From the NCBI GenBank assembly GCA_003707115.1, contig PPNB01000006.1:62001-126000 (forward strand): a DNA stretch of 64,000 nt, read 5' to 3'. Source of the DNA: Tortispora ganteri. Taxonomy: Eukaryota. The notes beneath the pieces are model-generated. The model had not been told where the DNA came from, did not search any database, and was given only the letters and a program-made list of their open reading frames with translations. The translations under genes and the position numbers were made by a program. Shown here piece by piece: positions 4,691 through 56,058 of the stretch (positions within the stretch are counted from its first letter, which is position 1; the number at the start of each line of letters is the position of its first letter).

Positions 4691-5516
4691 ATGGATGTGT
4701 TGTAAATGCGGGATGTGCAAGTGCTGGTGTGTTTCCAGTAAACTCTGGGAGAGCGGGGGAGAGTGCAGTGCCTGTGTCTATGTCCCGTGTTCCTTTAACG
4801 GCCAAAATGTGAGTACAGTGGTAAGCGACGTGTAGGCTTTTCTTAAAGCACAGAATTCGACAAAGAGGAATTAAAAAATATTAGAATAAATTTGAGACCA
4901 ATATTTAAATAAAAAGAATAGAAGCGCGACGTAACTGCTTGCCGAAGGAAATTTGTAAAAGCCTCCAAATAACAATATATGAAAGCTTGAGAATTAGAGT
5001 TTATGTTAAGCAAATAGGCTTGTTAACTACAACATTAAAAGTGCAATGGTAATAGTGCACCTTTCAGTTTCTATAGATGCAGCAAAGCCTTATTGTGAGC
5101 CAAGTTAATTAATAATCAACTGTACAGCGCGATGATCTCTACGCCACAATTATACTCCGCCTCTTAGACAACCCTACCTTAAATCATATGGCCCGCAAAA
5201 AAACCGTTCCGCAAATCACTATAGATCTCCTCCTTCCCCCCATAATAAAGTTAATCAAGATTTAGCCAATCAGAGTTGTCTCGCGTAACACCGAGGTTCT
5301 TTACAATTACAAGCTTTAAATGTTAGTACCTACTAGAACAGAGAGCATACCTAACTGGTCTTATCTTTAACCACAGTTATATTTAGCCACCGTTATATTT
5401 AACCCCTATTTATCGATTTCTCCCTTTTTTTTTCTGAATTTATTAATCGTTATTAATCGTTTTATTGCTGTGCCTTATTTTCCTACTGAACACTTCCATT
5501 ATTATCGCCATTCAAA

Positions 5517-18512: not shown

Positions 18513-19587
<1,075 letters not shown>

Positions 19588-23856: not shown

Positions 23857-24870
23857 AGCTTATAGACTTAAGGCGGCAGAATATAGTAAAACGAAGAATC
23901 AAGAATGTTTCAGAGAAGTTCAATGCATGAAAATATATATCTGAATGATTTCTTTTGAAGCAAAGAAACGATCCATCCAGTGATAAAGTTAGATTTAGAG
24001 TGCTAATTAATGCCGGGTATCCAATCATCATCAGCAGTTATATCTAGCTGAACCTTACTTTTAGATGCTAAAAATGCCAGGCGGCTGATGATTGGTTTGT
24101 CGAAGAACCTTAAATTTCAAAGAGACTGCTAGCTATAGGAATTTCTAGCATCGTGCCCGAGCTGTACGAGCTTTTCAAATGATAAGCACGCTATAGACGC
24201 ATTAACTGTATGGTCCCACAATTCTATGACGGCCATTATGCGCGATTTGTCTGCTTACTAAGTGAGAAGTTTTGAGGCTTCTCTCCGCCGATTGTCGCCT
24301 CAGATAGCATCAACAGAAGTACAAGGGAATATCATCCGAACCGCTATGCGCGCAATATATTAAAGAAATAAGAAATTTAACTTCAAAAAAGTGATAAAAT
24401 CACTGAAAGTTTGAACCCGTCCAGTAGAAAGCCATGATTAGTGATTTTCATACTTCCATTCGGGATGCAATATAACTTTGCAGATCGACAATGACAGGAG
24501 GGGCAATGTGACTGCAGCGCTCAAAGGAGATCATAATAGAATAACTTAAGTAAATTAAGTAGATCTAGTTAGCTTAGCTTACATGCTTATTAGTTCTCTA
24601 GGTTGCTGCTTTGTCACTGGCGGCTAAACAGGCAGTACTAGAGTCAAAATCGCTCGTGCCAGCTTCGGTTTGTAAACGAATTGTAGGCGTTAAGAGAGCG
24701 ACAAACAAGCTTACCGGAAGGGATATACTTCAGTGTCAAAAACGTAAAAAGTGCTAGTGGCTTTGTTTTTTGATCGTTTGTTCGTTGTTTCCCTTATATC
24801 TACACGCAAGGCGCATTCGTTGAAATACTTTAGTTGCCGTATTGGAAATGGAAGTATGGGAGTATAATCA

Positions 24871-24971
24871 GTGGGGGTGTGGTGGGAGGGTGGGATACTA
24901 GAAAACTGAAATGGCTGTTCCCTCCCGGCAAATACAAAACCGTGGGGGTGGGACTTGGACGATTGGGGTGG
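24871..24971 (+). promoter_or_regulatory. G-tract cluster upstream of PDA1 (G-quadruplex-forming motif and Mig1/CreA-like GTGGGG sites)
   Basis: GGGGG-TGTGGT-GGG-A-GGG-T-GGG at 24873-24894; second GTGGGGGTGGG at ~24942. Confidence 0.45.
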
Positions 24972-25145
24972 ATTTGGTCAGAGGGAGGCAGGCAAAAGCG
25001 AGGGAAAAACCAACACCTTAGTATCCTTTTTCATCAACCCTTTTTGGTACTGCGTTGCACGCCAACTCGACGATAACATCGAAGTTCACACATAGGGATT
25101 AAAAGGAACGAATTGTCCTTGATAGTTATTGAAAAATAGTATTCA

Positions 25146-26330
25146 ATGTTGCGCAATCAGTTTCAGAGATTGTGCACTCGCAGTGCCAGGGCAAGTGTTC
25201 CCGTCCGTGGGCTTGCTTCCGCCGCAGATAACAGTAAAACGGTTGAGGTAAATCTTCCTGAAGATTCTTTTGATCTTTATATGCTGGAAGAGGGTCCGAA
25301 GACGAATTTCGAAATTTCAAAGGATGAATTGCTTACTCTCTTCAGAGATATGAATATCGTTCGTCGCCTAGAGATGGCTTGCGATGCTCTGTACAAAGCT
25401 AAGAAGATCCGTGGTTTCTGCCATCTCTCAACTGGCCAAGAAGCCGTTTCAGTTGGCATGGAACATGCAGTTACTAAAGAGGATTCTATGATTACTGCAT
25501 ACAGATGCCACGGTTTCACTTATATGCGAGGCGCGTCTGTGAAAGCCGTTATCGCCGAACTTTTAGGTCGCCGTGCTGGTGTATCTTTCGGAAAAGGTGG
25601 ATCTATGCATATGTACTGGAAAAACTTTTACGGAGGTAACGGAATTGTTGGCGCACAAGTTCCTCTAGGTGCTGGTCTAGGTTTTGCTCACCAATACCTC
25701 AACGAAAAGTGTGCTGCTTTTGCTCTCTACGGAGACGGCGCTTCTAACCAAGGACAGGTATTCGAAGCTTTCAATATGGCTAAGTTGTGGAGTTTACCTG
25801 TTGTATTTGTTTGTGAGAACAACAAGTATGGCATGGGTACTGCAGCTGCTCGCTCTTCTGCCATGACTGAGTACTATAAGCGCGGTCAATACATGCCCGG
25901 TCTTAGAGTCAATGGTATGGATGTGTTGGCAGTAAAAGAGGCTACTGCTTTTGCTCGCGACTGGTGCATTTCTGGAAAAGGCCCTCTCGTAATGGAATTT
26001 GTCACTTACAGATACGGTGGTCATTCTATGTCTGATCCGGGTACGACTTATAGAACTCGTGAGGAAATTCAGAATATGCGCTCCAAGAACGACCCTATTG
26101 CAGGCCTTCGCCATCATATTTTGGATTGGGGCATTGCTACAGAAGCTGAACTCAAGGCAATTGACAAGGAGGTCCGTGAGAACGTTAACAAAGAAGTTGC
26201 TGAAGCTGAAGCTAGCCCTCCTCCAGAAGCTAAGTTGCAAATTCTCTTCGAAGACACCTACGTTCGTGGATCTGAACCACCTTTCCAGCGTGGTCGCATT
26301 CCAGAAGAAAACTACACTTTCAAACAGTAA
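25146..26330 (+). CDS. PDA1: Pyruvate dehydrogenase E1 alpha subunit, mitochondrial
   Basis: IRGFCHL, GKGGSMHMY, TPP motif GDGASNQGQ...ENN and YRYGGHSMSDPG. Confidence 0.98.
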   Translation: MLRNQFQRLCTRSARASVPVRGLASAADNSKTVEVNLPEDSFDLYMLEEGPKTNFEISKDELLTLFRDMNIVRRLEMACDALYKAKKIRGFCHLSTGQEAVSVGMEHAVTKEDSMITAYRCHGFTYMRGASVKAVIAELLGRRAGVSFGKGGSMHMYWKNFYGGNGIVGAQVPLGAGLGFAHQYLNEKCAAFALYGDGASNQGQVFEAFNMAKLWSLPVVFVCENNKYGMGTAAARSSAMTEYYKRGQYMPGLRVNGMDVLAVKEATAFARDWCISGKGPLVMEFVTYRYGGHSMSDPGTTYRTREEIQNMRSKNDPIAGLRHHILDWGIATEAELKAIDKEVRENVNKEVAEAEASPPPEAKLQILFEDTYVRGSEPPFQRGRIPEENYTFKQ

Positions 26331-26457
26331 TCTTTTCTAATATCTACTTATAATCGTATCACTAAGTCGTATCACCAGAGTTCGTACTACTGCAGCACTA
26401 CTGATATTAGTAATCTTTTAACATGGCAACTCATTGATATACAGAAGGCATAAACGT

Positions 26458-27060
26458 TTAGTAGCCGTACTGAGCAAGGGCTTTGCTAGCATCAGAATCG
26501 GCAAGAGCAGCTTCGGCATCGGCAAGTTTCTTGGCAGCAGCTTGCTTCTTAGCGAAGTAAGCAGCTCCCTTTACTTTTCGTCGTTCCTCAAGACGAGCAA
26601 CAACATCTTGGTATTTCCAGCCAACCTCGTGGCTGACACGACCAATAGTAGTATACTTGCGGCCAGGCTTGAGACGCAATACACGAAGTGCTTGGGGAAC
26701 AACTACACGTTTCTTGTGGTCATAAGGAGGAGGGACACCCTCAAAAACTTTGAGACGCTTAAGAGCGGCTTTTCCACGGGCAGTCTTATGCTGAATCATA
26801 CCGCGAACAGCCTTATAAAAGATACGAGAAGGTGCACGGAAATGGAAAGGACCTCTTTGTTTGTTGAAGTTGGTAGCCTTACGCAAGTAGGCGTGGTATT
26901 TGAGCTTGGTACGGAAGAACTCACCAGACATGTTGAGATCCTCGCATCGAACAACAACAATATGCTGTCCTTCAAGGATCTGCTTTGCAACAATAGATGC
27001 AAGGCGTCCGACGAGGTGTCCCTTACCGTCAATGACAACTAAGTTATCGAAGTTGCTCAT
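26458..27060 (-). CDS. RPL16: 60S ribosomal protein L16 (uL13)
   Basis: [32 protein letters not shown] and [17 protein letters not shown]. Confidence 0.97.
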
Positions 27061-34039: not shown

Positions 34040-35868
34040 ATGAAATACGTAGTAGTATCTGGAGGTAAGTAAACTATTGCTAAAGCACGACCGTAACGGC
34101 CTTGTGCACTTTTTTAGGCTGAGATATTTTATCTTTATACTTGGTACTAACTTGCCATTTAGGTGTCATTTCTGGTATTGGCAAAGGTGTTATTGCTTCT
34201 TCAACGGGTCTTCTACTTAAAACTTTAGGCTTACGTGTCACATCCATAAAGATAGATCCTTATGTGAATATAGATGCAGGAACGATGAGTCCTCTAGAAC
34301 ATGGCGAAGTTTTTGTTCTGGACGATGGCGGTGAAGTTGACCTAGATCTAGGAAACTATGAGCGTTATTTAAATGTATCATTGACGCGTGAAAATAACAT
34401 TACCACAGGTAAAATTTATTCCCGTGTCATCGAACGTGAACGCAAAGGAGACTACTTGGGTAAGACGGTTCAGGTAGTCCCTCATGTCACCGATACGATC
34501 CAGAATTGGATAGAAGAAGTGGCACATCATCCTGTAGATGATTCAGGATGTGAGCCAGATGTTTGTATAGTCGAATTAGGCGGAACCGTCGGTGACATAG
34601 AGTCAGCTCCGTTTGTCGAAGCTCTCAGACAGTTCCAATTTCGCGTTGGAAGAGAGAATTTTGCCCTGATTCACGTATCTCTTGTACCAACGATTTCTGG
34701 GGAGCAAAAGACAAAACCCACGCAGGCCGCTATTCGTGACCTCCGTAGTCTTGGTCTGTCTCCTGATATCATTGCATGTCGCTGCTCAGAAAAATTAGAG
34801 AAGCAAACTGTTGATAAACTTGCTATGTTTTGCCATGTCACACCTGATCAAGTGTTGGTGGTGCATGATTTACGTTCTATTTACTTGGTTCCCGTTCTTC
34901 TTGAAGAGCAGAAGCTCTTGAAGTCTCTTGATTTAAAGATTCAACTTAATACCATCATGCTTCCTCCTGAAAGAGCTCGCGCAGGTACTGATCTATGGTC
35001 AGAATGGAAATCTCTTACTGCTAGAGATAACCGCTCATTTGACAAGATAACCATTGCATTAGTAGGGAAATACACGCACCTCAAAGATTCTTACATCTCA
35101 GTGGTCAAGTCTCTCGAGCATTCAGCTATGCACGTTGGTCGCGTTCTGGAAATTGTTTGGGTTGAAGCTTCAGACCTTGAGGCTGAAACTTCCACTGCGG
35201 AAAAAGTTAAGTTTCATAAAGCGTGGCACGACGTTTGTTCTGCAGATGGTATCCTTGTTCCTGGCGGTTTCGGTACCCGAGGCACAGAAGGTATGATAGC
35301 AGCTGCTAAATGGGCTCGCGAAAACAACGTACCTTATTTAGGAATCTGTCTCGGCCTACAGCTGGCTGCTGTGGAATATTTGCGAAACGTTGCTGGCGTT
35401 ATAGATGCTTCCTCCGAAGAATTTGATCCGGAACTCAGCGGCAGTAATAAAGCTGTTGTGTTCATGCCAGAAGTCTCGAAAACTCATCTTGGAGGTACCA
35501 TGCGGCTTGGACTAAGATCAACCAAGTTTCAACCTAATACAGAGTGGAGCCGCATTCGCAAGCTTTACAATAATTCTGAAGAAATATTCGAGCGCCATCG
35601 TCATCGCTATGAAGTTAACCCTGATCTGGTACCTCTGTTGGAAGAAAAAGGTCTTCACTTCGTAGGCAAAGATGAATCTGGCATAAGAATGGAAATTCTT
35701 GAACTTAAGGACCATCCGTATTATGTCGCTACTCAGTTTCATCCTGAATACATTTCAAAAGTGTTAAATCCCTCTAAACCTTTCTTGGGTCTAGTTGCAG
35801 CAAGTGCCGGTATCTTGGATAATGTTATAGCTGAAATTGGACGAAAAGACGGTAAATCCTCTTTTTAA
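34040..35868 (+). CDS. URA7: CTP synthase; exons 34040-34064 and 34163-35868, intron 34065-34162
   Basis: Splicing GTAAGT...TACTAAC...TTTAG restores [17 protein letters not shown]. GATase motifs GICLG and QFHPE present. Confidence 0.97.
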
Positions 35869-35925: not shown

Positions 35926-36678
35926 TCATGAGAAACGTTTAATTAATATTTCTAGCTCCTTTGCCAGTTCAGGTTTTGGAATTTCCTTCAAGTAGATATC
36001 CCTTGCCTTTTTGGCGGCTACCAATGACCCTTTCTCAATCGCTTTCATGTAATAATAAAGCGAATCTTTAGTATTAGCTGACTTAATCGCATCTCCTATA
36101 CCAATACATACGTCCGGGTATTCTGTTTTGTTCGTGATTTGTGTCAAATATGTCAGCTTATCATCGGGATCAGAAGTTAGTGAAGCTAACTGCCTTAGCG
36201 CTAAGTCTTTTATGTCTGTATATATCTCATTGTTGTCTTTTGCAGTCCATTCTACGACCTGACGATACATTTGAGTTGCTTCATTTACTCTTTTGTTATG
36301 TAGAAGGACATCTCCATACAGCTTTGATGCAACAGGATCTTGCGTCGCTAACTCTCTCAAATCATTGGTTGATTTTCTGCTTTGCTTCATAGCATTTTCA
36401 AAAGCCATCAATGCTTGTGCAGATCGGCTGCCCCTTTTAGATGCATCACTTACTAGTTTTAGTTCTATACTGATATACTCTTTATTCACAATTCCAGAAG
36501 AGAGTCGGAATCTTTCAAAGGAACGCTTAAGTGTGTATAGATCACTTCCGCTGATGTTTTCTGGAATGGGTTTGTTATCAGAGTATGAGCTGATAACTGT
36601 CAAAGCAGAAGTTCGTGAAACTGAAGAGCCGATTCCTTTCAAATATGGCTTAATATCTCGATATGCTGCAGCGGCCAT
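35926..36678 (-). CDS. MSS2: Mss2-like TPR protein (Cox2 export); the 5' end may be incomplete
   Basis: GSDLYTLKRSFERFR...NKEYISIELKLVSDASKRG..AQALMAF and KLYGDVLLHNK resemble recalled Mss2 segments. No clear presequence. Confidence 0.6.
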   Translation of the reverse strand: MAAAAYRDIKPYLKGIGSSVSRTSALTVISSYSDNKPIPENISGSDLYTLKRSFERFRLSSGIVNKEYISIELKLVSDASKRGSRSAQALMAFENAMKQSRKSTNDLRELATQDPVASKLYGDVLLHNKRVNEATQMYRQVVEWTAKDNNEIYTDIKDLALRQLASLTSDPDDKLTYLTQITNKTEYPDVCIGIGDAIKSANTKDSLYYYMKAIEKGSLVAAKKARDIYLKEIPKPELAKELEILIKRFS

Positions 36679-39166: not shown

Positions 39167-40378
39167 ATGGACGAATATACCGTGAATAGCAATGAAGCCA
39201 TTACTATTTGTCTATCAGGCTTCGAAAAACATGATTTTAATCCAGATATGACTTACTCTGTTTTTGGAGAAAATGAAACAATATATGGTTATAAAGACTT
39301 GAAAATTAAGATAATGGTCGATGCTTCCACTTTTCTTATGTACCTAGATGTATCCTACTCGGACAAAAAACCCGATGCAATTGATATTGAGAACACGCTC
39401 TCTCATCTATTACCTGAAGATGCATACTCATCGGAAGAAGCATGGATGAAAGCTATACAGGATGAGAAACACAATATCCCTTACGGCACACTGATAAATT
39501 CAGGTGATACGATCGCAGTTTCTAGATTCCGGGCATACGACTATCCAGAACTTACTCGCAGACTTGAAACGTTTGTGCCGCTTTTTATTGAGGCAGGAAC
39601 AGTTATAGATACTCATGATAAACGATGGGAAGTATATTTGATGTATGCTCCTAACACTTACGATATCATAGGGTTTACAACAGTATATGACTGTTTTTAT
39701 TTTAACGCACAAGAATCAAACACTGTTCCAACAGAAGAGAAATCTTCAGCTGTGGAAGATATTATTGCCAGTTGTGTCAATATGCCTATGCTGGATGACG
39801 ATCCCTTGATCCTGAGTCGAAAAAGAATATCTCAGTTTCTTATTCTTCCTCCGTATCAACGAAGTGGAAATGGACGCACATTATATACAATAGTATTTGA
39901 TTCACTATTTTCAGATGGATCTGTAAGGGAAATTTGTGTTGAAGACCCTTCTGAGGCCTTTGATGATATGAGAGATGTCAGCGATTTAATCAGGCTGAGT
40001 CGTCCTCGAGGGACGTACCCACCATTATGGGAATCTGGGTTTTTTGATATGGCTGACCCTGCGGCAATTAAATCACAAGCAAAGACTGAAAAAATAGTCC
40101 TGCGGCAGTTCCAGAGATTAGTTGAAATGGCGCGTCTTAAGAATCTTAATTCAAAAAGTAAGGCAGAAAAGAAAGCACTTAGGATTGCTATCAAGAAGCG
40201 CTTGTTTTTACACAATAAAGAAGCTCTGAAAGATCTTGAGAGACCCGATCAAATGCAAAGATTAGATCAAGCCTATGACTCCGTCATTGAGCATTACAAA
40301 GAGATCTTAAATACGGTTAAAAGACTTGATAAACCTAGGTCTAGTGCCGATCAATCGCGCAAAAAGCAGAAATCATAG
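39167..40378 (+). CDS. HAT1: Histone acetyltransferase type B catalytic subunit
   Basis: FGENETIYGYKDL, LFIEAG, RISQFLILPPYQRSGNG and VEDPSEAFDDMRD. Confidence 0.94.
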   Translation: MDEYTVNSNEAITICLSGFEKHDFNPDMTYSVFGENETIYGYKDLKIKIMVDASTFLMYLDVSYSDKKPDAIDIENTLSHLLPEDAYSSEEAWMKAIQDEKHNIPYGTLINSGDTIAVSRFRAYDYPELTRRLETFVPLFIEAGTVIDTHDKRWEVYLMYAPNTYDIIGFTTVYDCFYFNAQESNTVPTEEKSSAVEDIIASCVNMPMLDDDPLILSRKRISQFLILPPYQRSGNGRTLYTIVFDSLFSDGSVREICVEDPSEAFDDMRDVSDLIRLSRPRGTYPPLWESGFFDMADPAAIKSQAKTEKIVLRQFQRLVEMARLKNLNSKSKAEKKALRIAIKKRLFLHNKEALKDLERPDQMQRLDQAYDSVIEHYKEILNTVKRLDKPRSSADQSRKKQKS

Positions 40379-40428
40379 ATTCCAGGAAGATTAACTGAGC
40401 ATACTCATGGTTCAAGACATATAATCAC

Positions 40429-41175
40429 CTATGCCTTATATTTTCGGTCTTTCTGGTTATAGTAATCCACATACTCTTGTAAGTATCGAGGTATCGGAAT
40501 CTGATTCTCTACGTACGATGCAGAAACAGGTTCACCGAATGTTTGATTCAAAGGCACATTGCCTACCCAAATTGTACCCAGAGTACTCGGATCATAATTA
40601 GCTGACTTTTCGTTGCCTTGTCCTGTCCTTGCCTTGTACGTTCCTGATGCCACTTTCACCTTAATTATCGAAGTAGTAGCAATTTCAGCGGGTAGTGGAG
40701 GACCATTACAGTTTTCCCATCGATCTGGAACAATCGAGTTTGTAATTAATTTCATGGCATAAAGTTTTTCTTCTTCGTCAGTTACTAAAGTAGCATCACC
40801 ATGAATTACAGCAGACCTGTAGTTCATACTATGAGAGAATGGAGTAGATGTTAGCACTAATGCATCTACTATATGTCCTGAAAGGCAAATAGGTATGCCT
40901 TCATCTCCTGCTTCACGAAGAAGGTTAGCTAGGTGAAAGGAGACATAACCATGTACATACGCATCCAATGGCTCATCAAACTCCGACGAAGGATTCTCAA
41001 ATGACCCCATTGCAGCTATCATCGGTATACACACAGGTCTGTTGTCAACGACGAAAGATACTGTAACTGAAGGTAGTTCGTGAATAAGGCGTTGAATCGG
41101 CTCTAACTCATATACATCTCTGTTAAGCCCTCTAGTAGGTGTGTTGAGCTTTGTTTTAGGAAATTTTAGATTCAT
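40429..41175 (-). CDS. Flavin-nucleotide-binding protein (pyridoxamine-5'-phosphate-oxidase-like / NimA family)
   Basis: PVCIPM, YVHG, VDALVL...FSHSMNYRSAVIHG, EEKLYAM..I...VPDRW and KARTG. Confidence 0.82.
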   Translation of the reverse strand: MNLKFPKTKLNTPTRGLNRDVYELEPIQRLIHELPSVTVSFVVDNRPVCIPMIAAMGSFENPSSEFDEPLDAYVHGYVSFHLANLLREAGDEGIPICLSGHIVDALVLTSTPFSHSMNYRSAVIHGDATLVTDEEEKLYAMKLITNSIVPDRWENCNGPPLPAEIATTSIIKVKVASGTYKARTGQGNEKSANYDPSTLGTIWVGNVPLNQTFGEPVSASYVENQIPIPRYLQEYVDYYNQKDRKYKA

Positions 41176-42241
41176 TAGATAATGTAATATCAGTGTTTCC
41201 CAGTCTGAAAAGTAAAATGGGCTGTCTATATGTACTCCTACTATCCGATAACGCGCTTACCCCACATGAAACTACCGCTGATAGCGCGCGCCCCGTTACG
41301 CAATGTCCATATCTCCCATATATATCCTCCTCCTCTCATTGGTTGATTATCAGTAAAAATAGGTTTCCGATACGATGAGTCATTATTGGCTTAAACTAAT
41401 CAGTTATCCCAACACACCTGCAGATGTTAAGACAAACTGACTTCTATAAACCTGTCGAATTCTTTTTAGCAATAAGGGTAAATAATTAGTTGTCTAAGGT
41501 TTATGCTTACTTCTCAGCAGATACCTGAAAACAAACAGTTAGTTCCATCGACTTGCACCTTGGAAAAAAGGTCAGGTCGGATTCTTCAACAGGTTTGTCT
41601 TCCTGACTCATTGATATGGGGTTGTATAATCAGTTGAGCTACTTGGAAATCGATCTAATTCAATGAAAAATACCAAGCGCATTATGGAGATGCTTCTTTC
41701 TAAATGCCGCTGAGCAGGAGCTTGCTTACCTATTGGTTTAACACGTCCTTAATCGATGCACCAAGTGCCCATCTCAGCGCCACACATAACATTTGTAACT
41801 CATACTAATTGAACTAATGATGACCCTTAATATGCTCCTATAATTAAAAAAAAATGATGTGTACCGAATACTTAAATAAGTTTCATATAGTCTTGTGCCA
41901 AACACCGTAAAAAAGCCGTAGTTATACAAATCTAACAAAACGCCAATCAACGGATGCCTACAATATCCATTTGTTCAGTGGACCGAAGAAAAAATCTTGC
42001 TTACTTTACCGTCAGTAACAATCACTGGTTGAGATTGTATCTAGCACTAAAACATGGTAAAATAATCAAATTGTTGCAGGTAAATTGCCTTACCACGTGC
42101 ATGAATCACCGCAATATCAGTGAAGTCATGTGGCGTGTGCAAAAGTATACAATCTCATATAGCTCAATAATCTCTAATCAACGCTGGAAGGTTTACCATA
42201 TTTATATCCATCATTTTACTTATTGAGCTTTCATAATGTCC

Positions 42242-42594
42242 TTCCGATAATCAAAGAGCGCCACTTTGTATACGCAAATCTGTTTCACAATAGTAGCCAT
42301 GTTCATGAAAATTATAGTACGCCACATAGAAATTACATTTAGACGAATTTCCCTGATATTCCCAGTCATACTATTAATAATTACTTGGCCAGACATTACT
42401 TGCTTTTTTTCCTTATAAGGGCAATATAATACACATGCATACACTGAATTCTTAACAGCCCATAATAATGCTAGTTAACAAACCGCCACACTTTTACTAT
42501 AATTTGCCACCATTGCTTACTACCGCCCTGTTGTTGCTAGACATAGTCTATTTTTATTTAGCCGTTACACTAATAACATCCATGGCTCAATAAA
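42242..42594 (+). repeat. Diverged direct repeat, copy 1 (~355 bp)
   Basis: Collinear blocks shared with 42711-43064: AGCGCCAC, TAGCCAT..CATGAAAAT, AATTACA.TTAGACGA, ACATTACTTGCT, GCATACACTGAA, ACCGCCAC, CCATTGCTT, TTATTTAGCCG and ATGGCTCAAT. Confidence 0.9.
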
Positions 42595-42710
42595 ATTTTA
42601 TAATGATTGAGCTATTTTTTTAATGATTTTACTCGAAAGCTTTAGAATAGTCATTGAATGCGTGCATGGTTTTAATCTACCGCTATGAACTGTGCTATTA
42701 TTTTATTTTC

Positions 42711-43064
42711 CTCCAATTATCAAAAAGCGCCACCTTATATACAAAAAGTCCGATTAATAATGATAGCCATCTCCATGAAAATCTGAACGGTGCACATAGG
42801 AATTACAGTTAGACGATTCTCTCTGAATTCTCAGTCTCCATACTATCAGAGAAATTACCGGACGAAACATTACTTGCTCTGCTCCTTATATGAACATTAG
42901 AATACACGCGCATACACTGAAGCCCTAGGTCAACGGTAATAATAATAAAATTATCTACCGCCACTTGAGTACTAGATTTGGCCATTGCTTGCTACCCGAT
43001 TTTCGCTAGGAATACAAGACCCTTATTTAGCCGGTACACGAATAGCATCTATGGCTCAATGAAA
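42711..43064 (+). repeat. Diverged direct repeat, copy 2 (offset ~469 bp)
   Basis: Same ordered blocks as copy 1, with substitutions and small indels. Confidence 0.9.
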
Positions 43065-43404
43065 GCCAAAATAAGTTGTATATACTATAAAATCATTTCT
43101 TAGAACACGAATAATACTATCTATCTCCAGGGACGTGTTGATTATGACGGTCGATCATATGGTTTTGTGCAAAGAAATCGCTAAACCATGTTTAAGAGGG
43201 AGGATTCCCCCGCAGCTAATTTAAACCAAAACAACCCCCCCAGCACCTGCCCTATCGCAACTATCAAACCTCATTCCGTCTATGAATTATACAAATTTGT
43301 TTCTGAGATGAAATCTGCTCTTTTTTCAAGTTCTAGTATCTCCCTATAGTAATTGTTACATATAGCGGAGCAAATTTAGTTGTCCTGTAAAAGACTGCAC
43401 GCGC

Positions 43405-43441
43405 TTATTATTAATTATTAATATTATTATTATTAATATTA
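43405..43441. repeat. Pure A/T low-complexity (TAT/ATT)-type tract
   Basis: ttattattaattattaatattattattattaatatta read directly. Confidence 0.8.
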
Positions 43442-46400
43442 GTATTACTGGAAATAAAATACGCTATTTCTACTAATGCTACATTGTAATGTAACAGCGT
43501 CTACTTTGGCGCTATAACGATTTTCTGGACCTTGCTTATGAGTTTTATTTTCGGTTATTGGTTCTTTGCCGCTAGTCATCTGAGTTAATTGATGCAACAT
43601 AAAAACAAATATACCCGCTAAGCGGCATACCTGTTATATTGTCGACGCCATAATAATATTAATATGGCACTCTGAAATATACATTCTATGGGAATGTGTT
43701 ATTATTATGGCAGAAGCTTATATTTCACTATACAGTAGTGAGAAGCTATGGACCAAACTGATCTAAGCTGTTCACTGCTTTGATCTAAATCCAGATAAGC
43801 TTTATATTTTCTACATAAACTATAGAGAATATGTATTCAATGGGTTTATATGAAACTTCGCAGGAGAATCATTAAGAATTATCTCATATAGCAGCATTCA
43901 CTTCTCTCTGGAAAGAACCTTAATAGCTAGTTCGACAGTTTCCGTTTAGCTTATTATACAGCCTGCACTATATGACGTTTACTAGATCTCGATCCAGATA
44001 GCTAATAGCCTACTAGTGAGGACAAACTCTCGATACTAGCGTACTTTTCAGTGCTTTATCTACAAGCGACTTAAGTGGCGTACTAAAATTTATTTAATCA
44101 CAAATATCAGGCCTAGATGTTGTTCTGGTCAAAACTTTTATACTACTTATCCGCAACATTTGCCACTTCATTACCAGTATAAAAAATTATCATTTGCCAA
44201 CCACATAGCGTTGATGAGACTCATAGTAGATTTTCTTAAGTCTGATGCCAGTTTTATTAAACTACATGCACTTTCCGCGGTAAAAAAAAATCTGGAGTAT
44301 TCCATTAGATTGTGGAGATCTGCTTCCCTCGGATCATGGAGAAAACAACTAGCGTCCAGTGCATTCTACACTCATCAAGGGGTGCTGTTCCGTAGTTTCG
44401 GTGAGTACGCAGGCATCGTGGCGATACCTAATTTCATTAGGATTATACTCTAAAATGAAGTAATGTCCATACTTCACCGAAATCTTGAATCATGCATAAC
44501 GTTGATGTGAAGTGTTAAAAGCTCATAAAAACTGTAGTCTTCATTCTCTTCCATCGCAACCCGAGCATAGCCTAATAAATTTTCACTGCGAACATGTTTA
44601 AACTACTATTAATCAAAAAGTAACATAAAGGCACTCTACATTATTAATTCATAATAGAGTAGACATTCTCTCAATGTACTCTTGGCTACTTCCACTGGCT
44701 TCTTTCCATGCTGTCCGTAAACCCCACTTGACTAGCGAAGAATACCAAAATGAAAGCCATCTATCCCCTTTGAAACACGATACAAGGACCCCTCCGGCTT
44801 GTCTAGTTAATTACTTGCATTTGAGCAGGTCGATCCCACCGCAAGCTGACGAATAAGTTGCAGGAAAATGGTAATAAATCCACGATAATTAATGAGCTTC
44901 ATTATGCAATGGTGTCATTTTATAATATCGCTCTTTTTAATATACGTATTCCACGTCTATAAAGTGGCCTCGTTAGTCTTATCGAATTTCAATATAATCT
45001 ACATCGGAAATATAACCCTTAAAGAAACTATGACAGGCAATTCTAGAAAGGACGTTACTTTAATGACTGTTCACAGCTTTTTTTCTCGTTGAAGTTATAG
45101 GTAGGAACGAGTACTTCTCTATAACTCAATCTGAATATAGAAAAAATCCTAGTAGACTAGGGCAAAAAATATATGAGTTTCTTATTCTTATAGCACGCCG
45201 ATCTTAAGTATTATATTAAACCATAGGACGCCACATGAAACCCAAACTATCACAAAATCGCCCATTTATAAATATATGTTAATTATTTAACCACAATAAA
45301 TAGAACTCCACTTTCTACAGCTAATTCCTGCCACTCGCCATTATAATTTGCTGTATTCACTATGACCCTTTCGTAATATAATTCAATTTATCTTGCGTTG
45401 GAAAAAGCCAATCTAACGGGGAACTAATATATATCATGTAGGGAAGCATAATTACGCCTTGTTATCATTTTTCGCATGGAGACAAGCAACTGACAACATC
45501 TGCGATATACTGAAATAGCTCTACATACTCTACCTTTTTTCTCTTCTCAAACAAATTATGTAAGACTTCTTTCAGGTTTCAATAAAACACCCTGCCAATA
45601 CAGTAGATATTCCGAGTAATTCTCTGAATTATGAACTCACAGCTTTAACCATATGAACCTCTGAGCGCTAACAGAAACTAAAAAATTGTTGTCAAAGTTA
45701 TTATGCTATTTTATTCATACCGGTCACTATGTGGCGTATCCGCATATCCTCTCAATAGTTGGGACAAAGCACCCACCTGTTATATTGTGAAACTGACGAA
45801 GCGAACGACCAAAACAATCATAAACCGCAACTTGCAGTTATTATACTATAATATAATTAAAATTTGTGATCTATGATAATATCCCAATCCGCATAATCAA
45901 ACATCAATTTCAATAATGAAACGCTAGAAGATTTCCTGAGCTAACTAAAATGTTACTTCGTTGATAGTGGCAACAGGCTATCAGAACCTAGCATAGTGAT
46001 ATGGCGGCAGGCTGTGGTCGTGTGGCGTAGTGAGATTGCTCCGAAATGCTGATAAACAGAGTGTTAGAAGTGGCAAGTAGCAACCTCAGCGGTATTGCAG
46101 TGTTCGATGCCCTTGCGGAGTTATAAGCATCATATAGTGAAGTTTTGCTATTTTTACATATGAATTTGATTCAATTCCGGGAAGTATGAGAGAATACGCA
46201 CAATTAGTGAAAGAGGCCTTCTAGAACCCGACGTGATTAGGAAAAAGAAAAGTAAATGGAACACAAGCATAACATGTTCACTCAAAGCCAAGGTCATTAG
46301 GGAAGAATATATGACAATGTTATATACTTTTGTTTCTACAAATGACCTGCTAGATTCAGCATTCAGTGAAACTGACTGATTACCAAATCTTTTCAACAAT

Positions 46401-47313
46401 AGAATAATTATCGAGCTTGGTAACAATACTATTCGACGTTTGAAAGCGTGGATGCGTGGATGAAACTTCGCCTATGACTGCAGTATCGACTATAAGACTC
46501 TAAATCTCGAGTGACTCACTAGTGTGTACATGGCGAACTATGAGTATTTCACAGGGAGTCTAAGCATGGCTATTGTAGCCTAATTCTTTTTAATAACTCG
46601 GTTGATTGATCCAATTTATGACCATGTTCGTTCGCTGAACAATGCTTTTCAAGTTTGGCAGAAAAGATGCTCCGGACCTTTGCTTAACGGACTTGGCAAC
46701 GTGTATTCCATGGGCTGTTCCAGTAGATAATGCAGTGCAGCACGCAATTATTGATTCCTTTACTCAGGACTGTCTTTAAATCGCTCATCGTAAGTGCTCG
46801 TAACATATTGAATTCAATAATCTACTACTGTATTACCAGCAGCAGGTCCTTTAGTTATGTGTTGTCCATCCTGTAGAGTATTTCTACTAGCAAAAACCTT
46901 CAGGTATTTCGCCACTGAATGGATTCCAAAGTTGTGACGCCTCTTTCGCCACAGTAGTGTGACATGTGGCAAACCACGGACTGGACACCCAGATAGTTAT
47001 ATAGTCCACGTTTGCGATAGGAGTGTGGCGAATGGCAAAGCAATGGCAAGATTCACAGTATTGTACTTTCAACTATAGATAGCGCTGAACATTCAGGACG
47101 TAAGAATGCGTTCCAGAAGGTCAAAGAATCGTATAGAATGCATCATTTACTCAGTCTAGTTCTGATACAATGTACTCCCGATTACAACCTGGAAGATTCA
47201 TTTTTTGTGTGAAAACAATGTATGTTGCTCTGAGTAGATTACGGCATACGCAATACATTAGACCATTATGACCAGATACAGACATGTAGCTGATTAAAAT
47301 GCTTTCCTGTTTC

Positions 47314-48093
47314 CTAAGGAAGATCAACACTTGCCGTTAGCCTACGCGCGTTTTGGAGTAAGCGTACTATCAGCGGACAATCACTAACAATTTTCATAGG
47401 CCCGGTAGTCCAATGTATCGATTGTCTTCTTTCGCATTCACTGATACCAGTGTTTTGCCACGTATTAATATGGGTTGAAGGCGTATGCGGCGCAGCGCGT
47501 TGGTACGGACTCGCGCCTTTTTTCATTAAGTAAGCGACTATGGCGTATCAAAAGAAACTCCAGTAACTAGAGAATAAATTCCTACTTCGTTGGTGATGCT
47601 CTCTAACGCTATTATGATCTTCCAAGAAGGGTGTTCGTGGTCTCACCTTCATTGATTTCATCTCATGCAACATCACCATTTCGGACTCCTCACAAAGTCC
47701 GTATTCACGAGCAATATCATACTTGATATATGCTTTTGACAGGTCCAGCCATTTATGGCCAGACTGATCAATAAACTCTTCTGGAAACGTCCTAAGATAA
47801 TTTTTGTTTTCGATGTTCTCAGTTGGCTGAGATCTCCCGGATACGATAAATAATCGTGGTTCAGTAGGGGGAGATGAAGTAGTACATTTAGAGCGCGCTG
47901 CCTTCGAAAAGTCATTGACAGCATGGCTGTTGCTGATGTCGCATGAAATATTATATTCAAATACGACTAAGGCTGTACGACAATTAAATCTCCTTTGCAT
48001 TTTACGGTGAGGTATGCCAGCATCCCTAGAGTTAGAACATATAGAGGAGTAAGTTTGCTTTTGTATATCTTCCTCCATTAATACTAGTTGCAC
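47314..48093 (-). pseudogene. Possible decayed ORF: a single ~260-codon frame with one internal TGA
   Basis: Track ORFs 47548-48093 and 47314-47526 share a frame and are separated only by TGA at 47548-47550. No recognisable motif. Confidence 0.3.
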
Positions 48094-49223
48094 GTAGTGT
48101 CGCCAGTATCTTTATTCCGAGTCTGGCTGCTCACCTTATAGTAATTTGAAAGTACCTTGCAGTGGCACAATACGAAACTTTGATAATAGTCGGACAGAAG
48201 AGACTCTTTCCTTTTCAGCGACAATCTTCTAAGCTACTATTAGAGGGATCTTCAGTAAGAGACCATATGTACTGGTAAAAGTGAACAGGCTGCTGCTAAC
48301 CCTAAAATTGCTATTCAACGGTCTCTTGAATGTCCGAGTATTCTGATACTTAGAGGGAGCTCATCACTTAATATCAGTTTATCTAATTGTCCCGATTTCT
48401 TTTAAGTAATAGATCCTTAGATCTACTCATAAGGCAATCTGCTAGTTAGAAAACACCGGAATAATTTTCGAATCATTTGTTTAGTCCTTGGCACTACCAG
48501 ATAAAGAGCTTAATGACCAGCCCCTTTGCTGGAGCCGTCTCTCCGAACTCCTGCATGGGTTCGCAGAGTTAATGGGTTCATCACCACGGCAGAAACCGAT
48601 GAGGAATGAGTCGCGTAGATTGTCTGACCCACCGGCGTACTGTGGACTTAATCCGTAATAATGGTGTGAGTCACTGAGCACATCGAACACCCCAGTCATA
48701 GCTGTTTTACCTTATAAGCGGTTCTTAACTGTTAGAAGAGTGATATGCCTAGTGTACTAAGGAACGATGTCATCAATTCACAATAGATAGCATCTGTCTA
48801 TGTCTCGGGTGCAACTGCGAGCTGGCACTATACCGTGTGTGATAAATTTTTATGAGAAAATAACTTACTATGCATGCTAGCAATTTATTTATAAGGGCTA
48901 GTGCCCTTTATTCGGTGCATGACGCTCTATGTGAGCCATGAGAAGTGCTACACGTTCTATAAATTATTAACGCATTGCTGCGTGCGCTAAGTGCAATAGG
49001 TACATATAATACAAAGTGCCTTAATCTTAACTGAAGTTTAGTACAAAGCGAATGGTCGCGTCATCTAACCGGATTAATGTGCTTCCTTCGAACTTTTTCT
49101 CCTTCTTAGCAACGGTCCAGCCAGTAAAGAATTACTCATCATCAAACAAAGTAACACTGAACAGCATTTAATTGAATTCGCTGCCAAGAATATACATTTT
49201 ATGTTAAATTTCTAAGCTATTGA

Positions 49224-50276
49224 ATGTTGAAGGCAGTTTTTATATCTAGACACTGTTCTAGAATTGATGCGGAAGATCCTACGTGGAAGGATACAGCTGT
49301 TACACCGTACGATCCGCCCCTTAGCGCTCGTGGTTTTAGTGAGGCTAAAGAGCTAGGAATAAGAGTGAAGCAGGCAATGCATGACTGCGGTGGATCAAAA
49401 CTCAACATACATAGCTCTCCATTTCTCAGATGCATTCAAACTGCTAGTGAAATTGCTAAAGTTGTTGACAATGTGGAATTAAGTATTGACTGCAGCTTAG
49501 GTGAATGGATCACGTCAGACTATTTTACTCATATAACGCCTCCTCCCGAAGATAATCATAGATCTATAGTTGAAACTGCACATCGATACTTGAATAATTC
49601 TACTACACCCGGTGTTAATAACAGAGATGCGTGGAAGTTTGGTAAAGGGGGAGAATACGATGAAGAGTGGTCAGAGATGAATGAACGAGCTCGCAAAGCC
49701 TTGGGATGTATTATAGAAGAGACTCGAATGCGAACTATTAAGCAAGAATCAGCTGATGGGAAAATATTAAGTGATGAGGTGATTTTAATAGTTTCGCATG
49801 GCGCAATCTGTAATTCGCTTATTGGTGGATTAAGTAACAGACCTACGCTGATCAACATTTCTGTAGGATCGTTGTCAATAGCATTGCCGCTCGAAGAAAA
49901 GCCTGCGGTGGACTCTACGTCACAAAGTCTTATTGACCGTATTGGTCACTGGAAGCTGTCTCAGATTGGTGATATGCGCCGGACTAGCAAAAGTGAGAGT
50001 TCTGACGAAGAGGATGTTGCATTGTGGAATTCATCTCCGAGAGAAATGTCAACTGCAAGATCGATACTGTCGCGATCCGGCTCTATTATCACTGATTTTA
50101 ATCATATAAGGTCTAGATCTCGGAGTAAAAGCCGACTACATATGTTGGTTAATGAGGGCACCAAAACGCAGTCTGGGTCTTTGTGGAAACCTCAAGAAGA
50201 TCTCTCAAACAAGTCGGAAGCCACGGGTGAGTTTAGTGAACCAAAGATATGGAACGAGAGCCAAAAACTGGAATAA
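49224..50276 (+). CDS. Histidine phosphatase / phosphoglycerate mutase family protein
   Basis: RHxxR (RHCSR), TPYDPPLS..G, HSSPFLRCIQTA, LGEW and LIVSHG. Confidence 0.85.
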   Translation: MLKAVFISRHCSRIDAEDPTWKDTAVTPYDPPLSARGFSEAKELGIRVKQAMHDCGGSKLNIHSSPFLRCIQTASEIAKVVDNVELSIDCSLGEWITSDYFTHITPPPEDNHRSIVETAHRYLNNSTTPGVNNRDAWKFGKGGEYDEEWSEMNERARKALGCIIEETRMRTIKQESADGKILSDEVILIVSHGAICNSLIGGLSNRPTLINISVGSLSIALPLEEKPAVDSTSQSLIDRIGHWKLSQIGDMRRTSKSESSDEEDVALWNSSPREMSTARSILSRSGSIITDFNHIRSRSRSKSRLHMLVNEGTKTQSGSLWKPQEDLSNKSEATGEFSEPKIWNESQKLE

Positions 50277-51550: not shown

Positions 51551-52531
51551 TTAGACGTTTGTCCTAATATAGTCAGCAATCTGAACCTTCGTCATTGTAG
51601 AGAAGCTATGGTTTTTCAACAAAGCTTTGCACAGCGTTTCCGAACCTTCTAGCTTAGGCAGATCTAATTCACCATTGATACATTTTCTTATAACCAAATC
51701 CCTGAACTTAGCTAAAGACTCTGCATCCTTCAGTTGGCAAGAAGCTGTTCGGAGCATTTGTAGAGCATGCTCTTCACCGATACTCAAATGATTATGTCCT
51801 ATTTGAGGTGTAATGTCAATAGCAAAATCAGGTTTATGTTCAGCAGAAGAAGAGGCAACTTCTGCTAGTTTTTTTGTGAAATTTTCAAGGTACCTTAGAC
51901 CATCACCTTGCAGAGTGCCAGCTCTAGGTAGTTGAGAATGGACAATTACTCCATCCGCAGCGGTTTTACGCCTATTGTTGGACTTCTTTGTAGCTGCGAC
52001 AGCCAACCTCCCTGTTTTCTTCCTATTTGTAGGCTGGTTAGCTCTCATAGTCGGCTTTCTTCTTCCCTGTTGATTTAAAGGAATTTCTATTGAGATATCT
52101 TCCAAATCAATATCCATATTTTTGGTATTTTTGGTTCTTGTATGAGAACCATTCGAAGCATGAGCTTGAGACGAAGTCTGCTTACTCAAAAGTTCAATTT
52201 GCTTATCGATGAGAGAATCAGAATGACCGGTTCCCTTCGGCCTAAAAATTCTTTTGCTGCTTTGAGGACCCATTCTTTCTCTTCGAATATTTGAGCTGGA
52301 TTTGACAGATTTTGAGGGTACGTTGCCAGAGTTCGGTGTGGTATTAATAGAATTTTTACTCTGCTGCCGTAAACGTTCGAACAGTGACGGTTTGTCTCGA
52401 GTAGCAGGAGAGGGCTTTTTTGAAAGATTAGATAAAGTATCCTGCAAGCTCGAAGGATTTAATTTAATCATGCTCGAACTGCTAGAAGGCGTCGCTTTTG
52501 ACAAATATCGTACATGTTTTAATCTATACAT
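51551..52531 (-). CDS. Hypothetical protein, probably mitochondrial (the ORF extends to ATG 52702)
   Basis: Long ORF. MYRLKHVRYLSK... at 52531 looks like a presequence, followed by a basic low-complexity middle and a helical C-terminus. Confidence 0.6.
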   Translation of the reverse strand: MYRLKHVRYLSKATPSSSSSMIKLNPSSLQDTLSNLSKKPSPATRDKPSLFERLRQQSKNSINTTPNSGNVPSKSVKSSSNIRRERMGPQSSKRIFRPKGTGHSDSLIDKQIELLSKQTSSQAHASNGSHTRTKNTKNMDIDLEDISIEIPLNQQGRRKPTMRANQPTNRKKTGRLAVAATKKSNNRRKTAADGVIVHSQLPRAGTLQGDGLRYLENFTKKLAEVASSSAEHKPDFAIDITPQIGHNHLSIGEEHALQMLRTASCQLKDAESLAKFRDLVIRKCINGELDLPKLEGSETLCKALLKNHSFSTMTKVQIADYIRTNV

Positions 52532-52736
52532 GATTGGATAGTAATGGTAAGGTCGGAAGTTTGGGAGAAACCTACGTTTACTCACCGGGAATGGATATAG
52601 TGCATGCGCTTTTATAAGAGCATGGCGGGCCAACTTTCGTACGATTCTAATGCCGCATTGCAATATATGTAGTAAAATTATTTCGTAATCTGAGTTGTCC
52701 ATTTGATTAACTTATGTACCTGACTAAAACAGAGAT

Positions 52737-53312
52737 TCATTCGATGCTGTTATAAGTCATCTTCTTAGAACTTTGAAATTTGTTGATAGTGGCTTTAATG
52801 AGCTCATTTATTTGCATTTGCAACACCCGATCCTGGTCAATGAGCTTGTCGATAATTTTTGATTCTGATTCGACAACTCGTAATCTTCTGTCATGTGTAT
52901 CCTTAGATGCATCGATTATATCTCTCAGGGAATCTAACCAACCTTTAGAGCCCTTAGGCTTTAGCTGATTTTGACTCTGGTGCTGATAAGTAAGATGTTT
53001 AACAAGATCTTTGTCTATTCTTGAAAGTTGCGATAATTCCCAATTGTCGGAAGAGCCACTGTCATTAATATCGCTCAAAAACAAGTGCGCGTCGCTAATA
53101 TTACTCGTTGCAACTGGGCTTGTCGAATTTAATGGTATTTTGTTCACATCATCTAAAGGCATGTCCGTTTTCGCCCCATTCGTTGCGACCCTTCCCCGGT
53201 TTTCATTTCTGGATTTTTTATTCACCTTATACGATGTCGAAGTATTTAGGTTTGTTTTCTTTCTAGGTCTGGATACTTTTATTGGCCCTTCATCGCTAGA
53301 ATCTGAAGACAT
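52737..53312 (-). CDS. Hypothetical protein with basic NLS-like segment and C-terminal coiled coil
   Basis: 191-aa ORF filling the gap between neighbours; RPRKK; heptad-like C-terminus. Confidence 0.6.
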   Translation of the reverse strand: MSSDSSDEGPIKVSRPRKKTNLNTSTSYKVNKKSRNENRGRVATNGAKTDMPLDDVNKIPLNSTSPVATSNISDAHLFLSDINDSGSSDNWELSQLSRIDKDLVKHLTYQHQSQNQLKPKGSKGWLDSLRDIIDASKDTHDRRLRVVESESKIIDKLIDQDRVLQMQINELIKATINKFQSSKKMTYNSIE

Positions 53313-55494: not shown

Positions 55495-56058
55495 ATGTCT
55501 GACCAACCGATTAACGAAAATCCCACTGTACTAAGTGCTAATGATCTACCACAGCGAGAAGATGCTGCAAATTATACTAAGAATATTCTGCTCGATATTG
55601 TATCGGCCCCTCTAACTATACCTCTCTACGATTCGGATACTTCTTCTATTTCTGATTCCGACGAAGAAGAACCAATTGATGCGCAAGAAATATTTGATTT
55701 AATCTCATCAATATCCGACCCAGAACACCCATTGTCTTTGGGTCAACTCGCAGTTGTTAATCTTCCGGATATCTCTGTTAAACACCCTACTTCTACTGAT
55801 TATGGGTTGATACATGTAGTTATCACGCCAACTATTACTCACTGCTCTCTCGCCACACTCATAGGTCTAGGCATCAGAATCAGGCTAGAGCGTTCGTTGC
55901 CCCCATCTTACAGGATTGATATAACAGTTAAACCAGGCTCTCATCAAAGTCAAAATCAAGTGAATCGGCAACTTAATGACAAAGAACGAGTCGCCGCCGC
56001 CTGCGAGAACGATCAGCTTATGGGAGTAGTGACTCAAATGTTATCGACATGCAGATAA
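55495..56058 (+). CDS. CIA2: Cytosolic Fe-S assembly factor Cia2 (MIP18/FAM96B)
   Basis: ISDPEHPLSLGQLAVV, TPTITHCSLATLIGLGIR and QLNDKERVAAACEN. Confidence 0.95.
   Translation: MSDQPINENPTVLSANDLPQREDAANYTKNILLDIVSAPLTIPLYDSDTSSISDSDEEEPIDAQEIFDLISSISDPEHPLSLGQLAVVNLPDISVKHPTSTDYGLIHVVITPTITHCSLATLIGLGIRIRLERSLPPSYRIDITVKPGSHQSQNQVNRQLNDKERVAAACENDQLMGVVTQMLSTCR

Follow-up and report, generated by a model that had tools for sequence, protein, structure and literature searches.

Short sequence motifs recur within the centromeres of Malassezia. These short regional centromeres are unique sequences of 3-5 kb at an intergenic GC trough, each with 7-13 copies of a 12-bp motif (PMC7025860). Although enriched at centromeres, the motif also occurs elsewhere and shows no orientation bias, and the authors of that study suggest that it recruits transcription factors (PMC7025860). 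Herein, we describe a cluster of the hexamer GTGGCG in a gene-free gap of DNA from the yeast Tortispora ganteri. The DNA analyzed, called the window below, is a 64-kb stretch (contig PPNB01000006.1, positions 62,001 to 126,000 of the forward strand), and the gap occupies its positions 41176-47547 (6372 bp). Like the Malassezia centromeres, the gap is a unique, intergenic, GC-poor region of several kb with a short motif in multiple copies on both strands. The initial annotation had described the arrangement of dispersed sites as one not known before, which was too strong in view of the 7-13 motif copies per Malassezia centromere (PMC7025860). The two motifs differ in kind. The Malassezia motif is AT-rich, 12 bp long, located in an AT-rich core of <1 kb and partly explained by composition (PMC7025860), whereas in Tortispora a GC-rich hexamer is spread over 5.3 kb of GC-poor DNA and is missing from the AT-richest middle. 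Centromere function in Malassezia was shown by chromatin immunoprecipitation, whereas the Tortispora gap is a candidate from sequence.

Transcription factors acting at centromeres are known from other yeasts. In point centromeres Cbf1 acts at centromere DNA element I (CDEI), and in fission yeast the GATA factor Ams2 acts at the central core (PMC7025860). Both are promoter-type DNA binders that support kinetochore or CENP-A stability (PMC7025860, PMC4570208); comparable binding in Tortispora is a prediction. Cbf1 has one site per point centromere, whereas the Tortispora gap lacks a CDEI or CDEIII pattern. Cbf1 also partners Met31/32 in the Met4 complex (PMC3350556, PMC3737730).

Met31 and Met32 supply a published match to the hexamer. 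Protein-binding arrays yielded TGTGGCG for both proteins (PMC3350556), the same core is given together with the 10-bp matrix CTGTGGCGCT (PMC3737730), and TGTGGCG is tabulated under Met31 (PMC551538). Met31/32 elements lie upstream of methionine genes in almost all hemiascomycetes (PMC526180). In the gap, nine of the 15 sites read TGTGGCG and one reads CTGTGGC, and in three the sequence extends to GTGGCGCT of the 10-bp matrix. A further TGTGGCG lies upstream of a PAPS reductase gene in the window. Known Met31/Met32 sites are single or paired, lie within 500 bp of sulfur genes near a Cbf1 box, and carry an A-rich 5' flank (PMC3350556, PMC3737730, PMC526180). Unlike that regulon, the gap has 15-22 sites over 5 kb of gene-free DNA. 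It contains one Cbf1 box (CACGTG), and its flanking genes belong to the Pyridox_ox_2 and His_Phos_1 families. The A-rich flank form AAACTGTGG is absent from the gap and occurs twice elsewhere in the window.

Rpn4 offers a second likeness. This factor binds GGTGGCAAAA and AGTGGCAACA in vitro, and GGTGGCAAA is described as its element (PMC526180). With GGTGGCAAA or AGTGGCAA taken as the defining core, the gap holds one exact GGTGGCAAA and one exact AGTGGCAACA, two forms that Rpn4 binds in vitro (PMC526180), and six of the seven GTGGCA variants of the hexamer read GTGGCAA. Unlike an Rpn4 regulon, the gap is not adjoined by a proteasome gene (Pfam on the ORFs, or open reading frames, of the window), and the majority form, GTGGCG with T at -1, departs from the Rpn4 consensus. 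The earlier statement that similar cores are bound by C2H2 zinc fingers thus holds, with TGTGGCG for Met31/Met32 and GGTGGCAAA or AGTGGCAACA for Rpn4, whose type of core is RGTGGCAA.

Base composition relates the gap to a third group. GC-poor troughs mark centromeres in Clavispora lusitaniae, Scheffersomyces stipitis, and Yarrowia lipolytica (PMC2997560). Like those of C. lusitaniae and Y. lipolytica, the gap is a gene-free local GC minimum of unique sequence in a domain of low GC at third codon positions (GC3), although the right edge of this domain does not appear within the window. The Clavispora and Yarrowia troughs are 100-300 kb wide, wider than the 64-kb window, and the abstract of PMC2997560 mentions no sequence motif for them.

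Enrichment and shape of the GTGGCG cluster

GTGGCG was counted on both strands together with its complement CGCCAC. The gap and its GTGGCG sites, located by pattern search and for three of them also by unit alignment, are as follows.

41176-47547, no strand: gene-free gap with the motif cluster, 6372 bp
41778-41783, minus strand: GTGGCG site, TGTGGCGCT
42130-42135, plus strand: GTGGCG site, ATGTGGCGT
42259-42264, minus strand: GTGGCG site, AGTGGCGCT; paralogue of 42728 (also unit alignment)
42320-42325, minus strand: GTGGCG site, ATGTGGCGT; lost in unit 2 (also unit alignment)
42484-42489, minus strand: GTGGCG site, TGTGGCGG; paralogue of 42959 (also unit alignment)
42728-42733, minus strand: GTGGCG site, GGTGGCGCT
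42959-42964, minus strand: GTGGCG site, AGTGGCGG
44075-44080, plus strand: GTGGCG site, AGTGGCGT
44418-44423, plus strand: GTGGCG site, CGTGGCGA
45229-45234, minus strand: GTGGCG site, ATGTGGCGT
45731-45736, plus strand: GTGGCG site, ATGTGGCGT
46022-46027, plus strand: GTGGCG site, TGTGGCGT
46910-46915, minus strand: GTGGCG site, AGTGGCGAA
46947-46952, minus strand: GTGGCG site, CTGTGGCGAA
47025-47030, plus strand: GTGGCG site, TGTGGCGAA

The whole window contains 32 copies of the hexamer. Dinucleotide-preserving shuffles averaged 13.4 (standard deviation 3.7), and none of 100 reached 32. Fifteen of the 32 copies fall at 41778-47030, nine of them read as CGCCAC and six as GTGGCG on the plus strand; all 15 start positions listed by the initial annotation were exact. 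Markov models trained on the gap itself predicted 0.91 (order 0), 1.03 (order 1), and 1.5 (order 2) copies for the gap, in agreement with the rough earlier estimate of 0.6-1.7. Expectations rose to 4.4 and 9.0 at orders 3 and 4, as such models absorb the motif itself. The hexamer had been noticed post hoc and was put forward with that caution. Among all 2080 canonical hexamers, it ranked first in the gap and survived correction, with Bonferroni p values of 9e-10 (order 1) and 1.7e-7 (order 2). Across 500 dinucleotide-preserving shuffles of the gap, the best hexamer of any kind reached p=4.2e-7, compared with 4.4e-13 in the real sequence. When all k-mers of the gap were tested, GCCAC and CGCCA were the two leading 5-mers and TGTGGCG was the leading 7-mer, with 9 copies vs 0.34 expected.

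The remaining window holds 17 copies, 16 of them within ORFs (45.5 kb coding) and one in the 12,118 bp of other intergenic DNA. The hexamer is therefore not equally common in the other spacers of the window, an outcome that would have undone the original proposal. Windows of 5.3 kb that avoid the gap never held >4 copies. Derivation from former coding DNA was ruled out, as the density is 0.35 per kb in coding DNA vs 2.35 per kb in the gap. Since a GC-rich word is enriched in GC-poor DNA, composition cannot explain the enrichment. That the cluster is real is practically beyond doubt.

The enrichment is specific. When the core was compared with its 18 one-letter variants, GTGGCG (15 vs 1.0 expected) and GTGGCA (7 vs 2.0) alone were enriched in the gap, while GAGGCG, GTGGCT, GTGGCC, and the remaining variants occurred near their expected counts. 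Besides the three GTGGCA variants already pointed out at 42505, 44161, and 46966, four more are present.

42505-42510, minus strand: GTGGCA variant, GGTGGCAAA, exact Rpn4 element; lost in unit 2
44161-44166, minus strand: GTGGCA variant, AGTGGCAAA
45329-45334, minus strand: GTGGCA variant, AGTGGCAG
45967-45972, plus strand: GTGGCA variant, AGTGGCAACA
46070-46075, plus strand: GTGGCA variant, AGTGGCAAG
46966-46971, plus strand: GTGGCA variant, TGTGGCAAA
47456-47461, minus strand: GTGGCA variant, CGTGGCAAA

The longer form GTGGCAA occurs six times in the gap vs twice in the other 57.6 kb. A or T precedes the core in 12 of 13 independent sites, giving an approximate consensus W-GTGGC-R (W, A or T; R, A or G) with 15 GTGGCG and seven GTGGCA, or 22 GTGGCR. 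Positions beyond the core are uninformative once paralogues are removed, as 64% of random-anchor sets give an equally small best p. A bipartite form, GTGGCG-N7-AT, was found at 8 of the 15 gap sites and at none of the 17 outside, and it was rejected as not significant without paralogues and with all positions tested. The Crz1 consensus is GNGGCK, and a Crz1-type reading was ruled out by GAGGCG (1 vs 1.0 expected) and GTGGCT (0 vs 1.9).

Some of the sites are related by descent. The sole repeat of the gap is a tandem duplication with two units of about 470 bp.

42243-42711, plus strand: tandem duplication unit 1, containing 42259, 42320, 42484, and GTGGCA 42505
42712-43180, plus strand: tandem duplication unit 2, containing 42728 and 42959

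The units are 71% identical over 365 bp (BLAST) and 63% identical over 460 aligned columns. Two hexamers are kept in both diverged units, as first reported, and form the pairs 42259/42728 and 42484/42959. With two paralogous pairs, 13 of the 15 sites are independent. A profile hidden Markov model of the 470-bp unit found just its two copies in an nhmmer search, with no third, older copy. With the motif masked, pairwise local alignment of the 150-nt sequences flanking all sites gave no longer repeat common to the sites; outside overlaps and duplication pairs, flank scores were at most slightly over the random-anchor control. An origin from a retroelement or repeat family was ruled out by the Pfam null, the single-copy depth, and the dissimilar site flanks. 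A bare 6-7-nt word in unrelated flanks is the signature of selected protein-binding sites and not of a repeat family. The sites are likely, on this pattern, to be selected binding sites, and the array is most likely functional as a set of putative protein-binding sites.

Composition, coding content and copy number of the gap

The window GC minimum lies in the gap, at 35.0-36.0% in 2-kb bins at 42-46 kb vs 39-48% elsewhere. Taken overall, the contrast is 34-37% GC vs about 42%.

41400-45900, no strand: GC-poor core, 33.7-37.5% GC in 600-bp windows; GC skew -0.04 to -0.23, with a sign flip near 45.9 kb
43278-43477, no strand: most AT-rich 200 bp of the window, 73.5% AT; the 80-bp maximum is 85% at 43405-43484

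To the right of 45.9 kb a weakly positive skew (+0.03 to +0.14) extends for just about 1.2 kb. The AT-richest 200 bp sit within a 1.1-kb GTGGCG-free interval (42965-44074), which has seven sites within 1.2 kb on its left and five within 2 kb on its right. Part of the 85% AT maximum is a low-complexity ATT/ATTA run at 43403-43455, where the contigs of two sequencing runs of the same organism (X1 and X2) end. Beside the AT-rich middle, at 43465-43584, these runs yield two contigs at depths 34.5 and 45.3, one identical to the window and one with three single-nucleotide polymorphisms (SNPs; 43495, 43525, and 43554). This heterozygous bubble indicates that the sequenced culture has two haplotypes there.

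GC3 ranges from 0.40 to 0.53 in 13 ORFs at 1-24 kb and from 0.32 to 0.43 in 20 ORFs located between 27 kb and the end of the window. The step falls at 24000-27000, where a domain of low recombination may have its left edge. GC3 is lowest, at 0.317 and 0.324, in the two genes just left of the gap. By analogy, the GC3 pattern resembles the GC-poor troughs at yeast centromeres.

The gap is the only long stretch of the window without an ORF of at least 150 aa and its longest non-coding stretch, 6.4 kb vs at most 1.1 kb for all other spacers. Its borders are given by the following features.

40429-41175, minus strand: left flanking gene P0002, Pyridox_ox_2 family (Pfam), transcribed away from the gap
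47548-49223, no strand: probable extension of the non-coding region, consisting of the doubtful ORF P0003 and 1145 bp of intergenic DNA, with no GTGGCG
49224-50276, plus strand: right flanking gene P0004, histidine phosphatase superfamily (His_Phos_1), directed away from the gap if P0003 is spurious

Among 28 stop-to-stop frames of at least 51 aa in the gap, none gave a credible Pfam match (best E=0.023, below cutoff); the scan left out one 59-aa frame overlapping the P0002 start. The two longest frames had a codon score of about 0. The period-3 statistic had a median of 0.88 in the gap, with 0 of 202 windows >3, vs 3.32 in coding DNA, where 59% of 1149 windows were >3. Hidden genes and pseudogenes were ruled out by the Pfam, codon score, and period-3 nulls. 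For RNA genes, 40000-49500 gave 0 Rfam matches at E<=1, and the gap contained no tRNA. A GC-rich element before a T-run at 47330-47526 was rejected, as it folds no better than shuffles (z=0.72). The words ACGCGC/GCGCGT occur at both gap ends (41251, 47344-47351, and 47495), with six in the gap vs 1.7 expected at order 3, and may be promoter elements of the flanking genes.

The 176-aa ORF P0003, on the minus strand (47548-48078), is unlikely to be a gene. It matches no Pfam family, a search of 1.84 billion representative proteins gave 0 homologues, its codon score is weak (0.059 per codon vs 0.170 in true ORFs), its period-3 values (0.87-2.24) lie under the coding quartile, and it carries three SNPs in 531 bp. 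Since P0003 is doubtful, the non-coding region probably reaches 49223, for a total of 8.05 kb. A histone acetyltransferase adjoining the gap is 88% identical to a Tortispora caseinolytica protein and at most 39% identical to any other match.

The gap is single-copy. Runs X1 and X2, which look like one data set and are not independent, cover it colinearly at a flat depth of ~80, and no contigs of these runs other than the colinear ones matched it at >=80% likeness. Relative to the window, they show a higher density of variants in the gap (24 SNPs and four indels in 6.4 kb) than in the flanks (11 SNPs and one indel in 7.6 kb). The gap variant rate is similar to that of a neighboring intergenic spacer.

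The gap as a candidate centromere and alternative explanations

The gap is gene-free and single-copy, holds the GC minimum, and lies in a GC3-poor domain, and these traits fit a centromere. Small regional centromeres are gene-free regions of several kb; the region here measures 6372 bp, probably 8048 bp. By analogy, the gap fits a small regional centromere of the Candida, Clavispora, or Malassezia kind and is the window's best candidate for one. We consider it an open call, tilted slightly in favor, that this putative centromere is genuine. The array would then concentrate a zinc-finger protein on both sides of the AT-rich, motif-free middle (42965-44074). There, the protein would support centromeric chromatin or low-level centromeric transcription, in the way that Cbf1 works at CDEI and Ams2 in the central core of fission yeast. 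The analysis establishes the enrichment, specificity, and independence of the sites, their agreement with published zinc-finger cores, and the non-coding, single-copy, GC-poor character of the region; in this chain we infer the protein binding, the centromere identity, and the link between the two. The proposal that a zinc-finger factor marks a centromere here, made when the motif was first noticed, gained from the enrichment, the specificity, the core match, and the centromere-like traits, while the centromere identity of the gap stays putative. The complete chain, a zinc-finger site array linked to a centromere, is accordingly offered as a tentative reading that falls short of an even chance. 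We regard as unlikely its extension to the genome, by which each Tortispora chromosome would carry one gene-free GC minimum packed with Met31/32-type GTGGCR, and a zinc finger from the Met4 cofactor set would specify or stabilize the centromere.

Other centromere types were rejected. For a point centromere, the defining patterns are RTCACRTG, about 80 bp of >86% AT, and a TTCCGAA core. The gap contains 0 CDEI (RTCACRTG), 0 TTCCGAA, and no combined pattern, and its best 80-bp AT content, 85%, is under the >86% required. An inverted-repeat centromere as in Komagataella, Candida tropicalis, or fission yeast would have to rest on just two short imperfect pairs of 20 and 31 nt; self-BLAST of the gap gave no inverted match, and a 10-nt inverted match at both gap ends was judged to be chance, with about 39 such matches expected. 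A retrotransposon-cluster centromere as in Debaryomyces, Scheffersomyces, or Ogataea is excluded by the single-copy state and by the absence of reverse transcriptase, integrase, and gag Pfam matches in the 28 frames.

Several observations weigh against a centromere-linked array. Four sites (46022-47030) lie outside the GC-poor, skewed core. GC3 does not rise over the 16 kb right of the gap and drifts downward (rho -0.77, n=9). Without such a recovery the window cannot show the gap as the trough center; the GC3-poor domain is not centered on the gap within the window, and its minimum may lie elsewhere. The unique regional centromeres of Candida and Clavispora species are not known to share a motif. 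Direct signs of constraint are lacking in both comparisons. None of the 28 gap variants (runs X1/X2) falls in a site, with 0.4 expected and hence no power in the test, and the retention of two of four GTGGCR between the units at 63-71% identity is not significant (p about 0.09). Both flanking genes probably point outward, the arrangement seen when two genes share an upstream regulatory region. Finally, the only other intergenic copy of the hexamer points to a plain transcriptional role.

5142-5147, minus strand: only GTGGCG in the other 12.1 kb of intergenic DNA, read as TGTGGCG (5142-5148)

It lies about 450 bp upstream of a PAPS reductase (MET16-like) ORF at 3866-4690, identified by Pfam. 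From its sequence and position, this copy is likely a sulfur-regulon element in a Tortispora yeast. The chance of such a placement is about 7% (826 of 12,118 bp), making it a hint only.

These last observations lead to ordinary transcriptional control, the alternative named from the start as a homotypic regulatory cluster, which remains about as likely as the centromere reading and which we still call rather unlikely when taken alone. The gap would be a long enhancer or promoter built from a homotypic Met31/32-type cluster, with Rpn4-type sites added, unrelated to segregation and responsive to sulfur supply or proteotoxic stress. It would act on the divergent flanking genes, chiefly on the Pyridox_ox_2 gene, which lies 600 bp from the closest site, or on an unannotated long non-coding RNA of the minus strand. 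The identity of the motif with the Met31/32 core and the sole other intergenic copy upstream of a sulfur-assimilation gene favor this explanation, as do the flanking genes, directed away if P0003 is spurious. The uniform excess of C over G across 41.4-45.9 kb could likewise reflect minus-strand transcription towards P0002, and the interval 45731-47025, immediately upstream of this asymmetric domain, contains eight of the 22 GTGGCR. However, 8 kb is out of scale for a control region where the other spacers measure at most 1.1 kb, and the GC3-poor domain around the gap would be left unexplained. Sulfur promoters pair the full AAACTGTGG with the Cbf1 box (PMC526180), whereas the gap has none of the former and a single CACGTG. 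The two flanking genes also count against it. We know of no sulfur or proteasome regulation for the family of either one.

A non-functional by-product is improbable. The sites would be relics of local duplication of a hexamer-bearing segment or the outcome of a mutation or repair bias, with no protein reading them. The 470-bp tandem duplication, with two to three sites per unit, shows that such growth occurs, and both the missing sign of constraint (variants against runs X1/X2, comparison of units) and the uninformative flanking positions without paralogues (matched by 64% of random-anchor sets) speak for this explanation. However, site flanks are dissimilar outside the two units, and only a few per cent of neutral hexamers would outlast divergence of this degree. 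To account for 13 independent exact copies, one must therefore invoke selection or a very recent origin, the second of which is excluded by the flanks. The 17 one-letter variants besides GTGGCA are near expectation, unlike the decay products of GTGGCG.

Least probable is another chromosomal function in, beside, or away from a centromere (a replication origin or fork element, a chromatin boundary or insulator, or a silencer array), for which the dispersed sites on both strands and the negative-to-positive GC skew near 45.9 kb, the polarity expected at an origin, speak, and against which stand the weak, short positive skew on the right, the lack of an RNA polymerase III A-box/B-box pattern in the gap, and the fact that we know of no origin or boundary factor with a GTGGC core.

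Other genes of the window and possible meaning for yeast centromeres

Elsewhere in the window, an Arf GTPase ORF (19093-19587) begins at position 15 of its family profile and a CTP synthase ORF (34285-35868) at position 49; a short exon followed by a 5' intron probably precedes each of them. High intron numbers have been reported for T. caseinolytica (PMC5499181), in agreement with the suspected 5' introns. Pfam assigned no family at E<=1e-5 to five ORFs of 187-941 aa (21031-23856, 35926-36678, 51551-52702, 52737-53312, and 55495-56058).

Tortispora belongs, with Trigonopsis and the Trigonopsidales, to an early-branching lineage of budding yeasts. We found no description of centromeres in Tortispora, Trigonopsis, or the Trigonopsidales in the full-text literature, subscription journals being outside its coverage. 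A search combining the hexamer with centromeres returned no title or abstract on such a motif among the matches listed.

The relation between purely epigenetic regional centromeres and the sequence-defined point centromeres of Saccharomyces is not settled. If the genome-wide extension of the centromere reading is true, an early-branching budding yeast would have a partly sequence-defined regional centromere. A regional centromere with a dense array of promoter-type zinc-finger sites would be a concrete intermediate, more so if the factor belongs to the protein set of Cbf1. Binders of the sulfur regulon (Cbf1, Met31/32) would then be linked to kinetochores outside the point-centromere lineage. 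If the gap is a regulatory cluster instead, it would be an unusually large homotypic array for a compact genome and would point to an unannotated sulfur- or stress-responsive locus.

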